This document shows, piece after piece, positions 25,368 through 57,510 of a DNA stretch of 64,000 nucleotides. How positions within the stretch are numbered: the stretch's first letter is position 1; each line of letters opens with the position of its first letter. Under the pieces are notes generated by a model. It searched no databases and had not been told where the DNA came from. It worked only from the letters and a program-made list of their open reading frames with translations. Location: positions 10,457-74,456 of the forward strand of contig JAUYPI010000018.1 of assembly GCA_030697645.1 (NCBI GenBank). The letters run 5' to 3'. The stretch comes from a bacterium. Its GTDB lineage: Bacteria > Patescibacteriota > Minisyncoccia > Phycocordibacterales > VMGT01. Position numbers and translations under genes: made by a program.

Positions 25368-25660
25368 GAAATTTTCAATTTTCAATTTTGCAATTTTCAA
25401 TAAATTTTCAATGAATCAATTTTCAAACACGTAACCACTCACCTTCGTACACAACCGCGTAACAAAGCCGTCATTGCGAGGAGCAAGATCCCTTCGCTTC
25501 GCTCGGGACAGGCTCCGCAATTCAGAGTCAGTACGTAAAACCCCTGGATTGCTTCGCTCCTTTTAGTCGCTCGCAAAGACGGGCGTGAGTGATTACTCAA
25601 ACACGAACGGTGCCGTGGTCATTGAGACATTGAACCATTGAAAATTGCAAATTGAAAATT
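25368..25660. repeat. Palindromic heptad-repeat element, A-type, split by a nested 165-bp insertion
   Basis: The left arm ends ...CAATTTTCAAACACG at 25431 and the repeat resumes TCAAACACGAACGGTGCCGTGGTCATTGAGACATTGAACCATTGAAAATTGCAAATTGAAAATT at 25596, directly abutting the ATG at 25661. Confidence 0.85.
25431..25595. mobile_element. MITE-like insertion with 12-bp terminal inverted repeats (GTAACCACTCAC / GTGAGTGATTAC, one mismatch) and an 8-bp target-site duplication (TCAAACAC)
   Basis: Inverted-repeat ends and duplicated TCAAACAC on both flanks read directly from the sequence. The insertion interrupts an otherwise typical palindromic repeat at its core. Confidence 0.7.
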
Positions 25661-30009: not shown

Positions 30010-30786
30010 TCACACGCTATATTCCCAATTTCTAATTTTTTCTGCATACTGCTCCTGCAATATAAGATATTCCTCTTTCAGTAAGAGCAACAATTGGGTG
30101 TCGGGGTAGCACAAACGAAATTCTTGATCACGTTGGTATGAGTATGGCGCGAGAAAATTTTTAATTTCTACAAAAAGATCCAACTCGGGTAAATAGAAAT
30201 CTGGCGTATAATTTTGTCTTAAAAGCCGAAACGTCTTTGGTTGATGTACCCATCTAATACTAAAGAAATCAAGCAGGCGGGCAAAGTTGGCCTCCCACCG
30301 ACTATAGAAATATATATCTCCGAGATCAGCACGCACGCCAGCCTTGGCGCGTGCGGCTCGTGGAGACGTTGGTTTTCCACCAATTACTTGCATCGCGCAC
30401 CTATTGCTGCAAAACTTTCGAGGCTGCCATCGCGCAAATACAATTTCTTTGCCGCACAGTGCGTTTTCACACCTCCCTCGTACAGGAGGTACCCGGATGA
30501 CACCTTTATGCTTATTGGGGCGACCGCGTAGTGCGTTTGCAATTTTATGCCTCGTGGCCTCAGTGTGGTGACGCAGAACGTTATTATACATCGCCGCGCA
30601 AGATTGAGAACAAAACTTTTTAGGGTCGGAGGGATTAACGACGAACACCCGACCACAGGCAACTTGTAGACAAGTTCGTTCCTCCTTTTTGCACAAACTA
30701 CCTAACTTACCTTCCTTCCAACCGTTGATAGAAATCACGCTTTGTTTTTCTCTGTATTCCAAAGAATCGTAAAAAGCGTATCTCAT
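30010..30786 (-). CDS. PD-(D/E)XK-nuclease-like protein with two N-terminal Cys-rich (zinc-ribbon-like) repeats. AT-rich, and abuts the tRNA-Thr 3' end
   Basis: C-terminal YTPDFYLPELDLFVEIK fits the D...E-x-K restriction-endonuclease-like motif. Tandem CxxC...FCSxxC repeats (KKFCSQSC, RKFCSNRC). ~40% GC. Confidence 0.55.
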   Translation of the reverse strand: MRYAFYDSLEYREKQSVISINGWKEGKLGSLCKKEERTCLQVACGRVFVVNPSDPKKFCSQSCAAMYNNVLRHHTEATRHKIANALRGRPNKHKGVIRVPPVRGRCENALCGKEIVFARWQPRKFCSNRCAMQVIGGKPTSPRAARAKAGVRADLGDIYFYSRWEANFARLLDFFSIRWVHQPKTFRLLRQNYTPDFYLPELDLFVEIKNFLAPYSYQRDQEFRLCYPDTQLLLLLKEEYLILQEQYAEKIRNWEYSV

Positions 30787-30789
30787 AGA

Positions 30790-30863
30790 GCCGGTGGAGG
30801 GACTCGAACCCACAAAGCCTTCGCTTTACAAAAGCGCTGCTCTACCAATTGAGCTACACCGGC
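30790..30863 (-). tRNA. tRNA-Thr (anticodon TGT), probable
   Basis: Minus strand: acceptor GCCGGTG/CACCGGC, D-arm GCTCAATTGGTAGAGC, anticodon stem-loop GCGCT-TTTGTAA-AGCGA, T-loop GGTTCGAGTCC. The variable region is one or two nt longer than canonical, so the fold is slightly irregular. Confidence 0.65.
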
Positions 30864-31347: not shown

Positions 31348-31508
31348 AGAAGTTCTGCGCTAGAAGTCATGGTATGATTACAGTGTAGCATACTGACGCA
31401 AAATATGCTCCAGCTCTTTCCACAATTTCGTATTCATTCGCTTCCAGCGCCGCGGTTTGGAAGTTGGAGGTCATAATTTTAGCGCATAATGCAAAATAAC
31501 ACAGTAAA

Positions 31509-31667
31509 AATTCCAAGCTCCAACCAACAAATTCCACGTAAATTCCAAGCTCCAAAAAACAAGCTCCAAACAAATTCCAATGATTCAAATTCCAATTTCC
31601 AAACACGCACGTTTGAGATTTGGAGTTTGAGATTTGTTTGGAAATTGTTTTTTGGAATTTGGAAATT
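31509..31667. repeat. Palindromic heptad-repeat element, B-type, upstream of smpB
   Basis: AATTCCAAGCTCCAACCAACAAATTCCACGTAAATTCCAAGCTCCAAAAAACAAGCTCCAAACAAATTCCAATGATTCAAATTCCAATTTCCAAACACGCACGTTTGAGATTTGGAGTTTGAGATTTGTTTGGAAATTGTTTTTTGGAATTTGGAAATT. Confidence 0.85.
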
Positions 31668-31693
31668 CATTTTGCTTTTTGTACTACCATACC

Positions 31694-32146
31694 ATGCCCC
31701 AGCTGCTCACCAACAAAAAGCGCTTGACCGACCTCGACGTCCTTGAGACGCTCGCGGCGGGCATCGAGCTCCTCGGCCACGAGGTAAAAGCCCTGCGCAC
31801 CGGCATGGGGTCGCTCTCGGCAGCACACGCGATCGTGCGCGGCGGCGAGGCGTTCCTCGTCAACATGTCGATCCCGCCCTACCAGAGCGCGAACACTCCC
31901 GCAGGCTACGATCCAGAGCGGCCGCGAAAACTGCTCCTCAGACAACAAGAAATCGCCCACCTTGCCGGCTACGAACGACAGAAGGGCTTGACAATCATAC
32001 CAATTTCTGTGTATACTTCCCGCAGGAAGATAAAAATCTCGCTCGCGATCGGCCGCGGCAGGAAAAAACACGATAAACGTGAGGTTCTCAAAAAGCGTGA
32101 CGCCGAGCGCGACATGCGACGCACTGTAAAGAGCAGTTCGCGCTAA
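31694..32146 (+). CDS. smpB: SsrA-binding protein SmpB
   Basis: KKRLTDLDVLETLAAGIELLGHEVKALR ... EAFLVNMSIPPY ... RPRKLLLRQQEI ... KKHDKRE matches the SmpB fold and the C-terminal basic tail. Confidence 0.9.
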   Translation: MPQLLTNKKRLTDLDVLETLAAGIELLGHEVKALRTGMGSLSAAHAIVRGGEAFLVNMSIPPYQSANTPAGYDPERPRKLLLRQQEIAHLAGYERQKGLTIIPISVYTSRRKIKISLAIGRGRKKHDKREVLKKRDAERDMRRTVKSSSR

Positions 32147-32163: not shown

Positions 32164-32199
32164 CCAGCACCACTTTTACGCTTGTAAAAGTGGTGCTGG
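32164..32199 (+). terminator. Perfect 16-bp hairpin between smpB and the tmRNA 5' end
   Basis: CCAGCACCACTTTTAC-GCTTG-GTAAAAGTGGTGCTGG. Its 3' arm runs directly into the GGGGATG acceptor of ssrA. Confidence 0.5.
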
Positions 32200-32609
32200 G
32201 GATGATTGGTCTTGACAAAAGAATACGCCCGTGAGGTGCGCAGGAGTGCTCCGACATCACTTAAAAAGGCCGGAACCAATACGTGCCAAGAACACTCTTG
32301 CACGAGCAAAGTCTATTCTTTCTCCCTATTTTGGGGTAAGCGACTTTGCTCTCGCATACGCCTAAAGCCGCGTCAGCGGTTTTCACGTCTGCGACGCTTG
32401 TTCTCTTTGACGCCCGATAAGACCGAACGAGTGTAATAAAAATTCGGACTGGAGCGCCGCGTGTCCCGCGCAGCGCTCAAGATTCTAGGGACGGCACGCT
32501 CGGTGAGATTTTGCTTGTTTCTCACTCGCCAGTGTATAAAAACAAGCTACCCTGCGTAGATGCCTCAGAGCAATTCTTTTGCACCCGGGTTCGACTCCCG
32601 GCATCTCCA
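32198..32609 (+). ncRNA. ssrA: tmRNA (transfer-messenger RNA)
   Basis: 5' GGGGATGATTGGTCTTGAC (tRNA-like domain acceptor and D-analogue), 3' GGGTTCGACTCCCGGCATCTCCA (T-arm and acceptor), with a G3.U70 wobble as in tRNA-Ala. It follows smpB. A candidate tag reading frame is GCAAAG...GCCTAA at 32306-32365. CCA is not encoded. Confidence 0.85.
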
Positions 32610-32712
32610 CTCGACTCGCCCCTCCTCGCGGAGGGGCGCGCTCGTAACGCTCGTAAAAAAACGAGGCGTTAAAAACAGCATACGTAAGTTACCCTGTCTT
32701 TTTGATGAACTT
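32605..32712 (+). repeat. Direct repeat copy 1 (about 107 bp): the last few nt of ssrA plus the downstream terminator region
   Basis: CTCCACTCGACTCGCCCCTCCTCGCGGAGGGGCGCGCTCGTAACGCTCGTAAAAAAACGAGGCGTTAAAAACAGCATACGTAAGTTACCCTGTCTTTTTGATGAACTT is duplicated with one SNP at 34183-34289. Confidence 0.85.
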
Positions 32713-32930
32713 TTTTTCTTCTGCTGGGATTAGTCCTCCACATTCCGCGCATCGTTTTAACCACTGCACACTAAAGCGCGAAATAGTTTAAAACAAACTA
32801 TTTCTGTGGATTACTATACCACTTGATTTATTGTATAAAATATTGTAGTGCTAATGCAGACTAAAGACCGACAATTCCGATCCTCATAACATAAGGAGGG
32901 AGCATATCTCCTCAAGATCGGTGGGAGTCT

Positions 32931-33707
32931 GTGCCTAAGCTGGAGTGTGCATTGTTCGATGGCGGCGCCTGGAGCTTCATACTCCCGATTGCAGTGGTGT
33001 TGGGATGTATTCTAGTATTGTTCCTCCATACTATGCGCCGCTCACGGCGCGGAGAAGCCATATCGTTAAGTGAGTGGCTACCAACTCCTCCAACGGGTCC
33101 AGATTCACAGTCGCCCACGACATGGCTAATCTATGGGCTGAGTGTCGTGAGTAGAGTCCTCCCGCTAGCAACGTTCTCGAAAGTATTTTCACTGCGCTGG
33201 CATATCGTTGTGCACGACGCGTATTTTGCGTTCTGGGTCGCGCTTGCATTGGCAACGCTACTATGGCCTCAGTATGTGGATTTACCGTTGCCGCTCTTCA
33301 TACTTCGGATAGGCGAGCACCTCACCGTATTTCTATATGAACTGATATACATTAGCGGTTTGCCGGCAAATCTGCGCCGACAAGTCCGATTCTCAATCGT
33401 GTATCGTATGCTCTTTGAAGAGATCCAGATCTTTTTCACGGTGGTGATATACGCCGCCGCGATCTATCGCGCATATGCGCCGTATATCGGGCTCGAAACA
33501 AGTTCCTCCCCGGCATGGGACGCGCTCTACGTGAGCATCGTAACCATAAGTACGCTCGGGTTTGGTGACCACGTGCCTCGTGACTGTCTTCGGTTGGTTG
33601 TCATGGCTGAAGTCCTCGTGGGTATGTTCATCGTGATTATCGGCATCGCTCGCTTGGTCGGTAAGATTACCGGATATATGGGCAACCATGACCAGACGAC
33701 AGCATAA
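32931..33707 (+). CDS. potassium-channel-like membrane protein, encoded in an islet bracketed by ssrA 3'-end repeats
   Basis: Multi-TM protein with a pore signature VTISTLGFGDHVP (TxGFGD selectivity-filter-like) near the C-terminal TM pair. The flanking leader is AT-rich. Confidence 0.6.
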   Translation: MPKLECALFDGGAWSFILPIAVVLGCILVLFLHTMRRSRRGEAISLSEWLPTPPTGPDSQSPTTWLIYGLSVVSRVLPLATFSKVFSLRWHIVVHDAYFAFWVALALATLLWPQYVDLPLPLFILRIGEHLTVFLYELIYISGLPANLRRQVRFSIVYRMLFEEIQIFFTVVIYAAAIYRAYAPYIGLETSSSPAWDALYVSIVTISTLGFGDHVPRDCLRLVVMAEVLVGMFIVIIGIARLVGKITGYMGNHDQTTA

Positions 33708-34182
33708 TGCCGGGCGTAACAGAAAGAGCAACCCCCTGATTTTTTGAAATCAGGGGGTTGAATATTGTGAGAGCAGGACTGCCGTTTTATTTCCTGTCGA
33801 GCAGGCGGCGTATTAATCCCTTTACGTAGGCGATACAGGCGCGACGTCTTTTCATTCTTGCTAATTTCCTCCTCTGCTCTTCGGCCATTCCTTCGTCAAT
33901 TTCTGCCTGCGATACAAAGATTCCCCCGCGTATACAAATCACCCGTGCTTCTCGCATACTTCGTTCTCCGGCAGTAGAATTATTCACGACTCCCATGTCT
34001 TTTCCTTATGTAGAAAGCAAACGAATGTGTAGTGACGTACCCCTCTAATCTTATAAAATTTTACTATGTATATCTTAATAAGTCAAAAATTGCGCTCGTA
34101 GGTTCCACAAGCAAGCGAAATATCTGGCATATGAATATATCCCATTTCCCCCTCAAAAATAGTTCTAACGTCCTGCACGGTG

Positions 34183-34289
34183 CTCCACTCGACTCGCCCC
34201 TCCTCACGGAGGGGCGCGCTCGTAACGCTCGTAAAAAAACGAGGCGTTAAAAACAGCATACGTAAGTTACCCTGTCTTTTTGATGAACT
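34183..34289 (+). repeat. Direct repeat copy 2 of the ssrA 3'-end / terminator segment
   Basis: About 99% identical to 32605-32712 (CCTCGCGG becomes CCTCACGG). Confidence 0.85.
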
Positions 34290-34613
34290 TCGTTTTGTTT
34301 CTATGGTGCTAAACCCATCACGCACTTCGCACGGAAATCAAGCCCGTAAACAACCCTGTGCTCTTCGCACAGGGTTGTTTATATACGTTTGATTTGTAGA
34401 AGCGCGGCTTACTCGATTGCCCCCGTCTCCACACGCCACCCCGCACACCGTCACTGCCGTGGCGGTGTTTGTATGATGAGCAGATACGGAGGGAATCGAG
34501 TGCGCGCTCGAGAACAACTATAGCGCTCCCTACCATGCAGTTCGTATAATGGTGCGTAATTCATAGTTAGTGTGTTACATTTTATTTTCTTGATATCTTG
34601 ATAGATGTGGGGG

Positions 34614-35984
34614 TTATATACCGATGCCGCGATAGACGATTCCTGCCGTAAGAAATTTCTCCTTATCTAAACAATTGCGCCCATCCACGACTGCCCTGAC
34701 GCCGTGCGTCGTAAAAAAATCGGGAGATAGGTCCACGAACTGCTGGTGCGCTGTCGCAACAACGACCGCCGTTGCTCCTGAAACCGCCTCGTCGATAGTC
34801 TCGGCAGTGGATTGTTTTGGAACAAACGGATCAAAGACACGCACGGAAAGTCCGGCTCGCTCCAAACGCTCAATAATCTTATACGACGGACTCTCACGAT
34901 CGTCCTCGATATTCGGCTTATATGCGACACCCAGCACCGCGGCGGAGGCGCTGGCGAATGGTATTGAGAGATCCTTTAGCGCGCGGAGTAAGAGGTCTGC
35001 GGTATAGGCAGGCATGCGATTGTTGATCTTCCGCGCCAGGGAAAGAAAGTCATGGTGGAAACCATTCTCCTCGGCATAGCGGATCAGGTAATACGGATCA
35101 ACCGGAATGCAATGCCCGCCCACGCCGCAGCCGGGGTAATGCGCCAGAAACGAAAACGGCTTTGTCGAGGCGCCACGTATCACGTTCTCCACGTTAATCC
35201 CAAGACGCGCGAAGGAGAGCGCAAGCTCGTTTGCAAATGCGATATTCACGTCGCGAAACGAATTCTCGACGACTTTGACCGCCTCCGCTTCTCGAACGGA
35301 GTTCATCTCGAGAATCGCGGCATCAATGACCGACCGATAAAACGCGGACGCCCTCTCGAGACTCTCCGGTCCAATGCCGCCCACCACCCGCGGAATGTTC
35401 CCGACATGCCACAGGGAATCCCCCGGGTTAATCCGCTCCGGCGCATGGGCAACAAAAAAGTCACGTTCGACGGCAAGCCCGGAGTTCTTCTCGAGGAGCG
35501 GAACAACAATACTCTCTGTAACATTGGGGTTTACGGTCGACTCAAGTATGACGAGCTGCCCTGCCCGGAGGTACCGACCGACATCCCGACAGGCCGCTTT
35601 GAGCGGGCTTAAGTTCGGCGCATGATTCTTATAGACTGGCGTTGGCACGCATACCGCGATGATATCAGCGTCGGCCACGGCGAGAAAATCCGTCGAGAAT
35701 GTAAGCGACGGATTCGCGCCATTCTTCCTCTCGAGGCGGTGTGCAAGTGCGCTCACTTTTTCCTCGTCTATGTCTATGCCGGTTACAGAATACCCTCTGC
35801 GGTACGCCTGCTCCGCAAGCGGCAGGCCGACATAGCCAACGCCCACGACCGCAAGGGTCTTCCAAGCCGTACTCTGCTCCTCTCGGTTCTTCTCCGGCTC
35901 ATCAGCACCCCATTCACGCCGCTCGGTTTTTTGCGCTTCTTTATGTGTACTCATAACATAATCGCGAATAATCGCGAAAAACAA
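34614..35984 (-). CDS. nucleotide-sugar dehydrogenase (UDP-glucose / UDP-N-acetyl-mannosamine dehydrogenase family)
   Basis: N-terminal LAVVGVGYVGLPLA NAD-binding motif, catalytic Cys region (GGHCIPVDP), and C-terminal UDP-binding domain. Confidence 0.85.
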   Translation of the reverse strand: MFFAIIRDYVMSTHKEAQKTERREWGADEPEKNREEQSTAWKTLAVVGVGYVGLPLAEQAYRRGYSVTGIDIDEEKVSALAHRLERKNGANPSLTFSTDFLAVADADIIAVCVPTPVYKNHAPNLSPLKAACRDVGRYLRAGQLVILESTVNPNVTESIVVPLLEKNSGLAVERDFFVAHAPERINPGDSLWHVGNIPRVVGGIGPESLERASAFYRSVIDAAILEMNSVREAEAVKVVENSFRDVNIAFANELALSFARLGINVENVIRGASTKPFSFLAHYPGCGVGGHCIPVDPYYLIRYAEENGFHHDFLSLARKINNRMPAYTADLLLRALKDLSIPFASASAAVLGVAYKPNIEDDRESPSYKIIERLERAGLSVRVFDPFVPKQSTAETIDEAVSGATAVVVATAHQQFVDLSPDFFTTHGVRAVVDGRNCLDKEKFLTAGIVYRGIGI

Positions 35985-47438: not shown

Positions 47439-47482
47439 CCAAACAAAACCGTCCTGTCTGAAGCAGGACGGTTTTGTTTGGT
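47439..47482. terminator. bidirectional rho-independent terminator
   Basis: CCAAACAAAACCGTCCTG-TCTGAAG-CAGGACGGTTTTGTTTGG, a perfect 18-bp stem. Its 3' end abuts the tRNA-Leu 3' CCA. Confidence 0.8.
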
Positions 47483-47565
47483 GCCCAGGAGAGGATTTGA
47501 ACCTCCACGGGATTGCTCCCATACGCCCCTCAAGCGTACGCGTAAACCAGTTCCGCCACCTGGGC
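47479..47565 (-). tRNA. tRNA-Leu (anticodon GAG), long variable arm, CCA encoded
   Basis: Minus strand: acceptor GCCCAGG/CCTGGGC, anticodon stem-loop TACGC-TTGAGGG-GCGTA, variable arm TGGGAGCAATCCCGT, T-arm GGAGGTTCAAATCCTCT, 3' ACCA. Confidence 0.85.
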
Positions 47566-48270
47566 ATTTTTATTGTGGGTCTCATTTATGGAAAATATTT
47601 TTTGCGCTTTGACGAATTTTCTTTCTAGACAAGGAAGGCCTGTCGCATAGTACATGCGTTCAAAAAGAGCGAGGGATTCTCTTTTGGCGTATCGCAGTTG
47701 TAACACGCGCGAACCCTGACCTATTCGACCCCGTACGCCCACTAACCTCCGCGAGGTTTGTTGCAACCACTCTAAAAATGGGCGGCTTGCCGACACAAAC
47801 GAAAGATAAAACACGTAGCTGCTATGCCAACGTGGATCCCAATATGCATAGATGCTGCCGTCCCCATCAAAACATCCACGCAAAAAATCAAAAAAGAACT
47901 GGTCTGGAACCGCGAGCGCGCCGATGGTCTTGGATTTATTGGGGGTTAACCCAATGCCCTGCAACCAATGATAAAAACTAACATCTCCGAATTGAACCTT
48001 GTAATACTCCTTTTGATCCCCGCGACCACTATAACCCGTTCCTATTTTAATCCTTTGCAGCCCAAGAATATTTTTGAACGTTTCAAGCTGGTCCTTGTCT
48101 TTTGATACAAGAATTATATGTCGACCGCTTTTTGACAGGCTGCCGTCTGTTGCGATCAGGCCAACAGCGTAGGCCATTTTTTCTGACCACTCAATCGAAG
48201 ACGGATCGCGAGGTTTTGGCCCTCTCTTTCCCATCACTCTAGTATACCCTGTATACCAATTAGTAGACAA
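47530..48270 (-). CDS. LAGLIDADG-family homing endonuclease (double-motif, free-standing). Its 3' end overlaps the first ~35 nt of tRNA-Leu
   Basis: Two LAGLIDADG motifs, LIATDGSL and FDGDGSI, about 100 aa apart. Lower-GC gene between rplS and tRNA-Leu. Confidence 0.8.
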   Translation of the reverse strand: MSTNWYTGYTRVMGKRGPKPRDPSSIEWSEKMAYAVGLIATDGSLSKSGRHIILVSKDKDQLETFKNILGLQRIKIGTGYSGRGDQKEYYKVQFGDVSFYHWLQGIGLTPNKSKTIGALAVPDQFFFDFLRGCFDGDGSIYAYWDPRWHSSYVFYLSFVSASRPFLEWLQQTSRRLVGVRGRIGQGSRVLQLRYAKRESLALFERMYYATGLPCLERKFVKAQKIFSINETHNKNAQVAELVYAYA

Positions 48271-53336: not shown

Positions 53337-53708
53337 CTACATAGTAGCCCTATATGCCTTTATCCTATCCTTATCTTCGTTTTCCGATTCACCCTTGAAA
53401 TAAATCTCAATAAACTCGACCTTCAGTGTTTGGACATGGAAAGCGTAGATGATCCTGATCCCACTTTTCACTCCACGTCCCTTCAATGCCTTACAAGCAA
53501 ATTTTTTGAGTTTGCAAATTAGAACCTCGTCAGTACAGAATTGCGGCATCGGGAAGATTGCCTGCTTATTGATCTTTTGGGTGTGGTAAAGCTCAGTGGC
53601 GAACGCCTTGGCAACCTCAATATCTTCGTTGAGGGAGTGAAATTTCTTGAGAAGTCTCTTGAGATCACGCTCAAATTCTTCCGTGGAGCTATAAGTCAGT
53701 TTCGTCAT
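53337..53708 (-). CDS. RelE/ParE-fold toxin (ParE_toxin-like)
   Basis: C-terminal LKGRGVKSGIRIIYAFHVQTLKVEFIEIYFKG resembles the ParE/RelE core (Y-R-I-I-Y ... hydrophobic ... K). It overlaps the upstream HTH-antitoxin gene by 20 nt. ~35% GC. Confidence 0.55.
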   Translation of the reverse strand: MTKLTYSSTEEFERDLKRLLKKFHSLNEDIEVAKAFATELYHTQKINKQAIFPMPQFCTDEVLICKLKKFACKALKGRGVKSGIRIIYAFHVQTLKVEFIEIYFKGESENEDKDRIKAYRATM

Positions 53709-54468
53709 AGATCCGTACGGAAGTTTCCGGAGTTCGATAAAAGACAGATTCGTATTTTATGATTTGCCCCTCTTCGGTCCCAAGCCAGGGCACATCTTTA
53801 TGAGAGTAGTCGCTCAATTCAGTCGCGGTTTTATCGGAAAGTCGAGAAAGCACTTCGTCTATATGTTTGATTTCTTGGGCATTTAGGACGGAAATATCAG
53901 CATCTCTTCGCGGAAGATACTTGGTTTGCTCGTGTTGAAAATACTTGCTCTTGACCGTCTCTAGTTCGCCTTTCTTCTCCATTGACTCAACGATCTTCTT
54001 AAACTCAACTGGAGTCGGTCCGAAATGATTCCGTGTGTATGTTGCTCCAATGAGCTGTTCTTCAAACTTTTCGTAAAAATCAAAGTCAATAAAGTAGAGT
54101 AGCTTATACAGCACCGTCATACCGACATTTGGTTTACTGCCGACTTTCTTAAGTATATAAAGCAAAACCTCCTTGAACTTTTTAACATGACGTTGGGGCA
54201 CATCAATACGCATCTCCTGTTTCGGGGAGCTGTGGGCTTTTTCACTTAAAGAAACTTTGACGTCCGGAGCTACCTTGCCTGCAATCAGATCTGAAAATGA
54301 AATATTAAAAATTTGGGCGATCTTGTTCGCCTGGGAGAGAGTGAGTTCTTTTGCCCCCTTCTCAATTTCTATATAACTCGCACGAGAAACACCGATTTTA
54401 TCAGCCACAAAAGCCTGCGAAAGCCCCTGCTTATTACGCAGTTCTAGTAGAAAATAGTGCTTAATCAT
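53689..54468 (-). CDS. XRE-family HTH fused to a Panacea (DUF4065, SocA-like) antitoxin domain
   Basis: N-terminal HTH (LRNKQGLSQAFVADKIGVSRASYIEIEKG). The C-terminal VLYKLLYFIDFDFYEKFEEQLIGATYTRNHFGPTPVEF matches the DUF4065/Panacea pattern. Confidence 0.65.
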   Translation of the reverse strand: MIKHYFLLELRNKQGLSQAFVADKIGVSRASYIEIEKGAKELTLSQANKIAQIFNISFSDLIAGKVAPDVKVSLSEKAHSSPKQEMRIDVPQRHVKKFKEVLLYILKKVGSKPNVGMTVLYKLLYFIDFDFYEKFEEQLIGATYTRNHFGPTPVEFKKIVESMEKKGELETVKSKYFQHEQTKYLPRRDADISVLNAQEIKHIDEVLSRLSDKTATELSDYSHKDVPWLGTEEGQIIKYESVFYRTPETSVRIYDETDL

Positions 54469-54650
54469 GGTTTGAGTATAGCAAACGGGAATAAGTTGTC
54501 AAGTATTCCGACAATCTAACTGTTGATAATCTTGACAACGAAAATGCGAGGAGTAAAATAGCAAAAGAGTGGCACTGTTGCGGCAGTAACCACTCGATCA
54601 TTCGGAAAGGCTTTTTAGCCCTTTGGGGCCTTCCGGCCTATCTCTGCACA

Positions 54651-54929
54651 ATGCGATCCAACAATTTCATTCTAACAGACCTAGACTCATTAACAAACAA
54701 GGGTTATAAACTTCTTCACAAAATGCCCTATTACACTCGTAATACTGGCAAACCGTGGAAGGCACAAGACGTTTCCCAACTCAGGCAACTGATTCATCAA
54801 AATGCCCCGACGCGGGTAGCCGGATTCAAACTTGGGAGAACTGATGATGCAGTCAGGGCCGAGGCAAGCAAAATAGGCCTCAGTCTCAAACCGGCAAATC
54901 AGTCCCCGTACACTCGCCGTAAGTCGTAG
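54651..54929 (+). CDS. hypothetical small protein (AT-rich islet)
   Basis: ORF with no recognisable motif. Confidence 0.35.
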   Translation: MRSNNFILTDLDSLTNKGYKLLHKMPYYTRNTGKPWKAQDVSQLRQLIHQNAPTRVAGFKLGRTDDAVRAEASKIGLSLKPANQSPYTRRKS

Positions 54930-55003
54930 GTAATAAAAGAGGAGCAGAGCCGCAACCTGCTCCTCTTTTATTTCCCAGATTTAGTTCGATTATCTTGTTT
55001 GCA

Positions 55004-55468
55004 TTACCGATTTCCTTTTGCCCGGTTGTGTGTTTTGCACAACATCTGGCAATTTTCGACGATAGTTTTACCGCCTTCATGCCAAGGAGTAATGTGATCT
55101 GCTTCCATTTCTGAAATATCGTACTTCTTCTTACAAAATGGGCAAATACCATTTTGCCGCTCGTATGCTTCGCGCTTCATCTTGTCGGTAAAAGCACGGA
55201 TTGAAAGATAGTTCTCTCGTCTTGTCAGAACATACGGATAAATACCGGATTTTTTGGTAACATCCTCGTCTTGCATTAACTCTTTAATTTCGGTTTCCAG
55301 TTTAGCGGCGTTTAGTTTCTTATCTTTGTATTGGTTGTGTAGTTCTCCCCAATTTACATGCGCCATTTCATGTCGATAATTTGGAAAAGTTTTTCGCACC
55401 CACGCAATCACATCTTGGAAGTATTGCCACAACTCATCAGCATTTCTGTCGTGCTGATGTTTGGCCAT
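55004..55468 (-). CDS. HNH-family nuclease domain protein (DUF1524 / McrA-like His-Me finger), probably a remnant of a larger defence gene
   Basis: CPFCKKKYDISEMEADHITPWHEGGKTIVENCQMLCKTHNRAKGN is an HNH motif with Cys-pairs and an H-N-N/H arrangement. Confidence 0.7.
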   Translation of the reverse strand: MAKHQHDRNADELWQYFQDVIAWVRKTFPNYRHEMAHVNWGELHNQYKDKKLNAAKLETEIKELMQDEDVTKKSGIYPYVLTRRENYLSIRAFTDKMKREAYERQNGICPFCKKKYDISEMEADHITPWHEGGKTIVENCQMLCKTHNRAKGNR

Positions 55469-55559
55469 ATAATCTTCTATTTTGCCGTCATTTATCCATG
55501 AAAGCGTGGTTTCTAAGTATTCTTGCCGGATTGGTGAGCCGCTAACTAATTGTCCGCCG

Positions 55560-55916
55560 TCATTCGCTAACAGATACGCCGCACAGTTTGATTTGCTGAA
55601 TTTTAAAGATTTCTTTGTAAGTAATCGCGTTTTGATTACCCATAATTAAGAACTTTTTCTTGTGCTTTACTAGTTGAGCAACATATTCACGGAATAAAGA
55701 AAATGGAGGGTTGGTTATGACTATATCGGATTGCTTGAGTGATTCGATGCATTCGTCGCTCCGAAAGTCACCACTACCACGCAGAGGGGTTGCGGTGTTC
55801 TTGTCGTGTTTGAGCAAATACTTAACGTCATCAAGATTTATCGCTCCATCCTTGTCGATATCCGGCACTTTTGTAATTTCAATTTTGAAAGGTTGTTTGC
55901 CTTTTGATCCAGCCAC
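55560..55916 (-). pseudogene. fragment of an N6-adenine DNA methyltransferase (motif IV only)
   Basis: VITNPPF catalytic motif in a 118-aa ORF with no motif I or target-recognition domain. Different frame from the downstream HNH ORF. GTG start. Confidence 0.5.
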
Positions 55917-56303: not shown

Positions 56304-56333
56304 CAAAATATATTCGCTGCGCTCGGTATTTTG

Positions 56334-56417
56334 CGGTGGAGGTGGTATTCGAACCCACGAGGCCTTGCGGCCGGCTGTTTTCAAAACAGCTGGAATAAAC
56401 CACTATCCGACTCCTCC
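56334..56417 (-). tRNA. tRNA-Ser (anticodon TGA), long variable arm
   Basis: Minus strand: acceptor GGAGGAG/CTCCACC (one A.A mismatch), anticodon stem-loop GCTGT-TTTGAAA-ACAGC, variable arm CGGCCGCAAGGCCTC, T-arm GTGGGTTCGAATACCAC, discriminator G. Confidence 0.8.
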
Positions 56418-57254: not shown

Positions 57255-57370
57255 TCCAGTGGCAACTGTGTATCCGGTGGACAATGAATCCGCGATTCAG
57301 ATGTCCCCCCGTCATTTCTAAATCCGAAGTCTGGATATGGAGATCAAACATACCCAGAATACCAAGCTCG

Positions 57371-57510
57371 AATTTCCAAATTCCAAAAAACAAGTTCCAA
57401 ACAAATCACAATACTCAAAATCCAATTTCCAAACACGACGTGCGTGTTTGGGATTTGATGCATTGAAATTTGAAATTTGTTTGGAACTTGTTGGTTGGAG
57501 CTTGGAGTTT
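57371..57510. repeat. Palindromic heptad-repeat element, B-type, upstream of pilM
   Basis: AATTTCCAAATTCCAAAAAACAAGTTCCAAACAAATCACAATACTCAAAATCCAATTTCCAAACACGACGTGCGTGTTTGGGATTTGATGCATTGAAATTTGAAATTTGTTTGGAACTTGTTGGTTGGAGCTTGGAGTTT. Confidence 0.85.

Follow-up and report, generated by a model that had tools for sequence, protein, structure and literature searches.

An uncultured Patescibacteria genome carries, at the 3′ end of its tmRNA gene ssrA, a direct repeat that brackets a 1,470-bp islet encoding a K+-channel-like protein. The reading that we favor, and to which we give about an even chance of being right, is that this islet is a cargo-only mini-island, comparable to the cis-mobilizable elements (CIMEs) of streptococci, lodged in an ssrA attachment site. 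The analysis concerns a 64,000-nt stretch of this genome, hereafter called the window, and the recombinase and open reading frame (ORF) searches reported below cover these 64 kb.

The direct repeat and its assembly support

The repeat is a real observation and more than a chance recurrence. A repeat finder and a direct comparison of the two copies, R1 on the left and R2 on the right, gave 107 identical positions out of 108, both copies having the same orientation and a spacing of 1,578 bp, with the islet (32713-34182) between them. Moreover, a 24-mer of the repeat (R) occurs twice in the window, against 0.00 occurrences expected. The sole mismatch, G32628 in R1 versus A34206 in R2, falls in the loop of the hairpin GCCCCTCC-TC(G/A)C-GGAGGGGC (32618-32637 in R1), and this hairpin is followed by two CGCTCGTAA units and by AAAAAAACGAGGCG. 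Alignment of the copies confirms the claim of an earlier note on this DNA that the ssrA 3′ end and the sequence downstream of it recur with one substitution. The start of the second copy had been placed correctly at 34183, but its end, given as 34289, is one base short: R2 runs to 34290 and the repeat is 108 nt long. The same note had taken the GC hairpin of R for a terminator, a label that now appears doubtful, as the hairpin has no U-tract and was not flagged by the terminator scan. R as a whole folds well compared to its shuffles (z = -3.6).

The ssrA gene itself is intact (Table 1). The tag read by ARAGORN is AKNTLARAKSILSPYFGVSDFALAYA*, and the adjacency of smpB and ssrA is kept in the relatives found through SmpB. 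The gene ends in ...GGCATCTCCA/C, the CCA being incompletely encoded, and the part of R that derives from it is CTCCA(C); about 95% of the identity block is trailer, that is, sequence lying downstream of the gene. Directly after R1 the islet starts with TTTTTCTTC, it ends with ..CACGGTG before R2, and the right flank starts with CGTTTTGTTTC directly after R2. The sequences located 5′ of R1 and of R2 are unrelated, and their anchored alignment is no better than those of shuffles. A decayed second ssrA copy or a T-arm remnant to the left of R2 was considered and rejected: the local alignment score equals the shuffle mean, and anchored alignments were no better than shuffles for the window as well as for the locus L027 described below. 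The repeat scan found no terminal inverted repeats of the islet.

Could this arrangement have been produced by the assembly of a mixed population? The chromosome would then carry a single R, and the islet with its own R would be a separate molecule, circular or strain-specific, threaded in by the assembler. The independent Logan contigs L001 and L002, assembled from other sequencing runs, match the islet at 100% identity, but contigs of this kind, built with k=31, break at the repeat and cannot distinguish the two states. Indeed, L002 extends from 30 nt before the end of R1 to 30 nt after the single-nucleotide difference of R2, exactly as expected where a k=31 graph breaks at such a repeat. 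A second metagenome-assembled genome (MAG) of the species, 99.99% identical (GCA_034376905.1, contig JAXMIX010000103.1, our L003), also stops within ssrA, at window position 32572. The distance from there to the last base of R1 is 140 nt exactly, or k-1 for k=141. A graph of this k could have such an end if ssrA-R1 had two continuations, with islet-present and islet-absent genomes in one sample, a situation that would speak for a mobile islet. Against an assembly origin, however, a 108-nt repeat is shorter than both the largest k-mers of common metagenome assemblers and the 150-nt reads, and is thus directly spannable. In addition, the mismatch separates the two copies and the Logan contigs reproduce the R2 variant, a circle of 1.58 kb would have no replication gene, and SmpB and the channel gene, the latter called as a 99-aa C-terminal product, stand side by side under adjacent accessions (MDP3735648.1 and MDP3735649.1) on a 91.7-kb NCBI contig. 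We consider an assembly origin most improbable.

Possible insertion at ssrA, with or without a site-specific enzyme

In the reading that we favor, a circle made of the islet and one R would have recombined with a chromosomal ssrA-R site, after which ssrA would be followed by R1 (attL-like) and the former downstream flank preceded by R2 (attR-like). The identity block would run from the 3′ strand of the acceptor stem (CAT/CTCCA, the stroke marking the limit) through about 103 nt of trailer, so that both ssrA and its trailer would be restored. The cargo would be self-contained and made of two parts: a K+-channel-type gene, which has a leader and a hairpin of its own, and a small ORF in reverse orientation. 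With no recombinase encoded in cis, the enzyme could act in trans, its gene lying in another part of the genome or being brought in by an infecting element, or this gene could have been lost by internal deletion. We infer here the circular intermediate, the site-specific enzyme and the mobility itself. The earlier note had proposed that insertion regenerates the ssrA 3′ end, which needs to be qualified: only 5-6 nt of the gene are duplicated, and the trailer is mainly what would be restored. The resemblance of the start of R to a structured ssrA trailer, considered below, could be the reason for the element to carry such a long identity block.

A site-specific event is favored because the exact ssrA junction recurs in an unrelated locus and matches a position linked to integrases, because displaced ssrA fragments are frequent in the phylum, and because the cargo of the second locus is typically accessory. 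This second locus, L027, is an unrelated Patescibacteria contig whose SmpB is 48% identical to that of the window. It carries a direct repeat of about 100 nt (92.6% identity over 94 nt; copies at 1639-1742 and 2610-2715), and the left limit of this repeat, CAT/CTCCACCA, falls at the same ssrA nucleotide as in the window. The L027 repeat brackets a toxin-antitoxin pair (Gp49/HigB-like and HTH_3) and a 17-nt displaced ssrA fragment (1850-1866); no integrase was found on the contig. Since the repeats of the window and of L027 share nothing past CTCCAC, their common limit does not come from shared ancestry of the repeat. The position linked to integrases is that of gamma-proteobacterial ssrA prophages with P4-, P2- and CTX-type integrases, the excision of which alters the 3′ end from ...CAGCTCCACCA to ...CAGC-CCACCA or shorter, the damaged position being ...CAGC/T/CCACCA (PMC10107115, Table 1). 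The left limit of R adjoins the acceptor-strand base that is deleted on excision by the P4-type ssrA prophages (PMC10107115, Table 1).

When all gathered tmRNA loci were scanned for copies of the ssrA 3′ end, exact copies of 16-20 nt, extending from the T arm to the acceptor end, were found downstream of ssrA in four of them (L024, L032, L116 and L181, Table 1). These displaced fragments suggest that ssrA is a frequent insertion point in the phylum. In L024, L032 and L116 we also observed an inverted partial copy of the ssrA T arm, with a terminator hairpin between it and ssrA.

Furthermore, the synteny shared with the closest relatives breaks off precisely at the 3′ end of ssrA. The nearest relative found, the metagenome contig L093 (SmpB 87% and DNA 82% identical), follows the window collinearly as far as base 32610, where ssrA ends, continues with an unrelated trailer and stops 139 nt after ssrA. 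Similarity between the loci L018 and L015 is likewise lost sharply at the ssrA 3′ end. As judged by SmpB, the closest relatives are MAGs that bear the labels Patescibacteria, Paceibacterota or Adlerbacteria; in the best GTDB genome this protein is 63% identical, and synteny is limited to smpB-ssrA.

Several results weigh against a mobile islet. Neither a tyrosine nor a serine recombinase is encoded in it, its two ORFs being, according to Pfam, an Ion_trans_2 protein and an orphan; on this point the earlier note, which had described an islet without integrase, was right. No recombinase was found among the ORFs of the window, whether by Pfam, applied to the islet, its neighbours and ten unassigned ORFs, or by reading the translations of the others, which look by eye like housekeeping, pilus and cell-envelope genes. 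Our searches found no empty site, no circular or free form and no integrase-bearing relative, and the relatives from GTDB and the metagenomes are too distant for an empty site to be obtained from them. The exact 24-mer of R is absent from the JGI metagenomes and from IMG/VR, and R and the islet are absent from the phage and plasmid collections. A foreign composition of the channel gene was looked for and rejected, as its GC content at third codon positions (0.58) is that of the host (window mean 0.585). The homologues of this gene found elsewhere (L086, L088-L092) are ordinary chromosomal genes, located away from ssrA and devoid of flanking repeats. The position of the junction belongs here too: the crossover subsites of Islander are the anticodon loop, the T loop and the T/acceptor junction (PMC4383910), and the identity of R starts outside these three, 3 nt into the acceptor 3′ strand. 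The integration island proposed in the earlier note is thus sustained in part, by the attL/attR-like geometry, the L027 parallel and the adjacency to the prophage site, but not by the search for an integrase, an empty site, a circle or an integrase-bearing relative, nor by the host-like composition.

Finally, 108 bp at 99% identity are a good substrate for RecA, for which no site-specific enzyme is needed, and RecA-driven insertion is the main rival of a cargo-only island. A circularized conspecific fragment carrying R and the channel genes would have been taken up by transformation and would have crossed once with the resident R in a Campbell-type event, from which it could loop out again. 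The length and identity of R are ample for this, the identity block is almost wholly host-type trailer, the channel gene has the composition of the host, and no integrase was found. Moreover, type IV pilus and ComEC-like proteins, recognized by eye among the ORFs of the window, fit DNA uptake. However, RecA leaves unexplained why the window and the unrelated L027 have the identical ssrA start nucleotide, and why this limit adjoins the base deleted on P4-type excision (PMC10107115). It also requires that the islet was already adjacent to R in the donor. We regard RecA-dependent insertion as unlikely, though as an explanation to be taken seriously.

The site-specific reading can also be pushed further. 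The ssrA 3′ end and its trailer could be a dedicated landing site of Patescibacteria for small integrase-less cassettes (the K+ channel here, the toxin-antitoxin pair in L027, possibly a GIY-YIG module in L181), which would be cut at CAT/CTCCA by an unrecognized recombination system, either a trans-acting enzyme encoded elsewhere or an ssrA-linked nuclease. We find this generalization quite improbable.

The ssrA trailer and the GIY-YIG gene

What is the trailer that makes up most of R? In the loci L008, L018 and L019, TCGACTCR comes directly after ssrA and is followed by a hairpin of variable sequence, then by CGCTCRTGGYAARCCAC, by further conserved blocks and by a GIY-YIG gene of about 88 aa. 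TCGACTCR after the CTCCAY of ssrA, the variable hairpin and CGCTCRT are all present in R. Among the 112 tmRNA loci gathered via SmpB, this trailer type was found only in these three and in the window, and the GIY-YIG gene is present in all three. In Patescibacteria this GIY-YIG family is both large, with 673 clusters at E <= 1e-10, and well conserved, the 119 homologues listed being 62-83% identical. The order smpB-ssrA-trailer-GIY-YIG is also found in the L173 group, the L181 group and L188. In L188 (1462-2165 and 2300-2876) we noticed three small ORFs between smpB and ssrA, and an unusually long ssrA (about 575 nt) that ARAGORN missed.

The trailers associated with the GIY-YIG gene (Table 1) fold far better than their shuffles, with z from -4.4 to -5.9. 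Their RNAalifold consensus has a downstream block paired with the ssrA 3′ end and TCGACTC; at one of the base pairs, three sequences have U-A and the three others C-G. Rfam gave nothing near threshold for R or for the trailers, and no group I intron. When a profile built from the six trailers was run on the window, R2 (E = 0.027) and R1 (E = 0.047) were its top two matches, weak but in register over positions 1-42. From these alignments, the first 41 nt or so of R probably belong to the ssrA/GIY-YIG trailer type. The profile match stops at position 42 and the rest of R has no detectable counterpart: the TGGYAARCCA hairpin, the terminator hairpin, the GAGKCGARTGYCCYGAGCG and GTCGARKGGGCTA blocks and the closing helix with the ssrA 3′ end are absent from R, except for ACGAGGCG. 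The third-best profile match in the window (25474-25565, minus strand, E = 0.067, ..TGTCCCGAGCGAAGCGA..) lies between two pilin-like genes, and may be due to chance or to a short motif common to trailers.

A functional trailer would allow the repeat to be explained without any mobile element. The channel genes would be old residents, and the trailer would have been copied to their far side by template switching or unequal exchange and kept there as a second functional copy. Such a trailer may act in ssrA 3′ processing, in termination or as a regulatory leader. The structured type found at the start of R, which follows ssrA in other lineages, the good folding of R and the host-like composition all agree with this proposal. 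However, one mismatch in 108 nt makes the duplication very recent, yet none of the relatives has a counterpart of the islet downstream of ssrA. The 5-6 nt of ssrA copied with the trailer have no obvious use at the second place, and the L027 parallel carries a different cargo. A local duplication of this kind appears distinctly improbable to us.

In every other locus having it, this trailer type is tied to a GIY-YIG gene. The window could thus contain a rearranged remnant of an ssrA-trailer-GIY-YIG module, inherited from an ancestor organized as L008, L018, L019, L173, L181 and L188, in which nuclease-linked breakage and repair would have swapped the nuclease gene for the channel islet and duplicated the trailer. 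Nuclease genes adjoin tRNA-Thr and tRNA-Leu in the window as well. On the other hand, double-strand-break repair by copying makes no direct repeats, and the strong conservation and the synteny of the small GIY-YIG proteins give them the look of resident genes and not of homing endonucleases. Moreover, tblastn with three GIY-YIG proteins returned neither a gene nor a remnant in the window, including the islet, the right flank and the sequences after R1 and R2, where a GIY-YIG pseudogene had been considered and was rejected. We judge such a replacement very improbable.

Several other observations were made in the window. An ORF on the minus strand (30010-30813) has its likely ATG 1 nt after tRNA-Thr (30788-30863, minus strand), and its product combines a NUMOD-like N-terminal region with a PD-(D/E)xK-type endonuclease C-terminus (PHROG resolvase/endonuclease families, 4.5e-13). 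Another tRNA gene, tRNA-Leu(gag) (47479-47565, minus strand), is abutted or overlapped by a second gene of nuclease type, which encodes a LAGLIDADG domain (47530-48270, minus strand; Pfam LAGLIDADG_3, 1.1e-08). The low-GC region 53337-55916, beside tRNA-Ser (56333-56417, minus strand), carries a small toxin-like ORF, an XRE-type HTH protein, an HNH-motif protein and a methyltransferase-like fragment, as judged from their translations only. A dispersed intergenic repeat family was also noticed, the element being about 130 nt long, rich in AAATTCCAA and containing internal inverted repeats; it is present in at least three copies in the window (31508-31672, 438-573 and 57368-57510) and twice in L093 (5561-5695 and 7812-7942), with 72-86% identity.

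Cargo of the islet and its place among known elements

The contents of the islet are as the earlier note had described them: a leader, a gene with a TLGFGD signature (32931-33707) and a small reverse ORF (Table 1). The call of a multi-transmembrane K+-channel-like protein also stands. The protein matches Pfam PF07885 (Ion_trans_2) at 2e-11 (44.1 bits versus a gathering cut-off of 22.5, residues 168-244) and, by sequence, the pores of NaK, K2P (K2P4), KvAP and MthK in the PDB (E ~1e-3). Its family is small and divergent, with 13 representatives at E <= 1e-10 and full-length members that are 31-39% identical. The filter T-[LIV]-G-[FY]-G-D is nevertheless kept across the alignment, T208, G212 and D213 being invariant and G210 nearly so. 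The AlphaFold (AF2) model (pLDDT 81) shows six long helices and a pore helix at 195-208. Run against the PDB with Foldseek, this model matched tetrameric cation channels exclusively, with weak E-values of 0.03 and above. One of these matches, KcsA 7mdj_C (TMt 0.72, root-mean-square deviation 3.1 Å over 108 columns), agrees with an M1-P-M2 fold. K+ channel function is a prediction from sequence and model. The protein would have in common with KcsA, NaK, the MthK pore, KvAP and MlotiK1 the pore module made of an outer helix, a pore helix, the T-L-G-F-G-D filter and an inner helix. It differs from them by four extra N-terminal helices, without an arginine-rich S4, and by having no cytoplasmic gating domain. 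In viral contigs the family gave one weak match, in the pore region only.

The leader upstream of the channel gene could function as a promoter or an operator. The small reverse ORF, p69, has no Pfam, NCBIfam, PADLOC or PHROG match, its only database match being itself, and its AF2 model (pLDDT 70.7) is a single long helix (30-68); p69 may not be a real gene. A small reverse ORF also follows the channel gene in L086 and in the P0003 contig, that of L086 being unrelated to p69. On these grounds (no family or homologue, a model reduced to one helix, no kinship with the ORF of L086), a role of p69 as an excisionase or a regulator was rejected. A defence function of the two-gene cargo was rejected as well, as PADLOC gave no match. 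For the convergent gene beyond the right flank, an exact look-up gave no record.

Table 1. Positions of the features discussed in the window and in the compared loci
Feature	Sequence	Position	Strand	Remarks
smpB	window	31694..32146	+	Pfam SmpB 9.7e-45; conserved upstream partner of ssrA
ssrA (tmRNA gene), intact	window	32198..32610	+	ARAGORN; Rfam RF00023 90.9 bits, model positions 1-374, full-length
R1, left repeat copy (attL-like)	window	32605..32712	+	last 5-6 nt of ssrA and 102-103-nt trailer; loop TCGC
Islet leader, AT-rich	window	32713..32930	+	GC 0.43-0.44; 10-bp inverted repeat GAAATAGTTT-AAAAC-AAACTATTTC at 32780-32804
Channel gene, 258 aa	window	32931..33707	+	six predicted transmembrane helices and pore helix; TLGFGD filter at residues 208-213
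Perfect 14-bp hairpin	window	33729..33760		between the two convergent islet ORFs; terminator-like on minus strand
p69, orphan 69-aa ORF	window	33787..33996	-	promoter-like site at 34086-34058
R2, right repeat copy (attR-like)	window	34183..34290	+	loop TCAC; same orientation as R1
Right flank, non-coding	window	34291..34613		hairpin at 34347-34381
UDP-glucose/GDP-mannose dehydrogenase-family gene	window	34614-35984	-	convergent, beyond right flank
Displaced ssrA fragment	L024	9410-9425		154-168 nt downstream of ssrA (range for L024, L032 and L116)
Displaced ssrA fragment	L032	3868-3887		as for L024
Displaced ssrA fragment	L116	8966-8984		as for L024
Displaced ssrA fragment	L181	5594-5613		1.77 kb downstream; encloses trailer, GIY-YIG gene and two unassigned ORFs
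Structured ssrA trailer	L008	10920-11056		~115-185 nt (range for the six trailers)
Structured ssrA trailer	L018	3833-3990		as for L008
Structured ssrA trailer	L019	9489-9634		as for L008
Structured ssrA trailer	L173	3841-4000		as for L008
Structured ssrA trailer	L181	3817-4000		as for L008
Structured ssrA trailer	L188	2870-3008		as for L008

How does the islet compare to elements that already have a name? ssrA is the favoured target of islands, and Islander requires an integrase and a size of 2-200 kb (PMC4383910). The locus is organized on the general plan of the genomic islands and prophages that tyrosine integrases insert in tRNA or tmRNA genes (Islander-type islands, with CP4-57, VPI and Fels-2 as ssrA examples): an intact target comes first, then the element, then a second 3′ end of the target in the same orientation, and the target is restored by the identity block. 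Indeed, the intact tmRNA gene is accompanied by a displaced 3′ fragment in the same orientation, the gene-derived part of which is only 5-6 nt long. In contrast to these islands, the islet, with its Ion_trans_2 gene and orphan ORF, encodes no tyrosine integrase and measures 1,470 bp; about 95% of its identity block is trailer, its host belongs to the Patescibacteria, and neither excision nor an empty site was seen. It fails the formal Islander definition on two counts, the integrase and the minimum of 2 kb.

By analogy, the closest named category would be the CIME, an element that has lost its integration and transfer genes but kept attL and attR (PMC6323972). Streptococcal CIMEs and the islet have in common attL/attR-like flanks and a cargo-only content devoid of integration and transfer genes, the putative attL and attR of the islet being two complete, 99%-identical copies of R. 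However, streptococcal CIMEs are known by the att sites that they have in common with a conspecific integrative and conjugative element, and they are mobilized by accretion, whereas no partner is known for the islet and conjugation is not expected in its lineage.

Integron cassettes also consist of a short cargo bounded by similar structured sites of about 100 nt beside a fixed chromosomal point. R differs from attC in having no inverted R″/R′ core symmetry, and the islet differs from a cassette in having its own leader and two convergent ORFs. An attC-like reading of R was rejected, as its ends are not complementary and the attC symmetry is missing; no integron integrase was found in the window.

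In conclusion, the finding is a variant of the familiar theme of islands in tRNA-type genes (tDNA islands) and not a new kind of system. Its points of interest are the host phylum, the very small integrase-less form and the duplicated trailer. Little is known of the mobile elements of the Candidate Phyla Radiation, and an islet such as this one would escape standard island finders, which need an integrase and at least 2 kb. The structured ssrA trailer, linked to a widespread GIY-YIG gene and without an Rfam family, is a candidate tmRNA 3′-processing or regulatory element. If the islet is immobile, the locus would be a recent local duplication beside a divergent K+ channel gene. If it is mobile, tiny cargo-only islands would ride ssrA attachment sites in reduced genomes, and the rule of ‘target restoration’ would then cover a functional trailer as well, located downstream of the gene.

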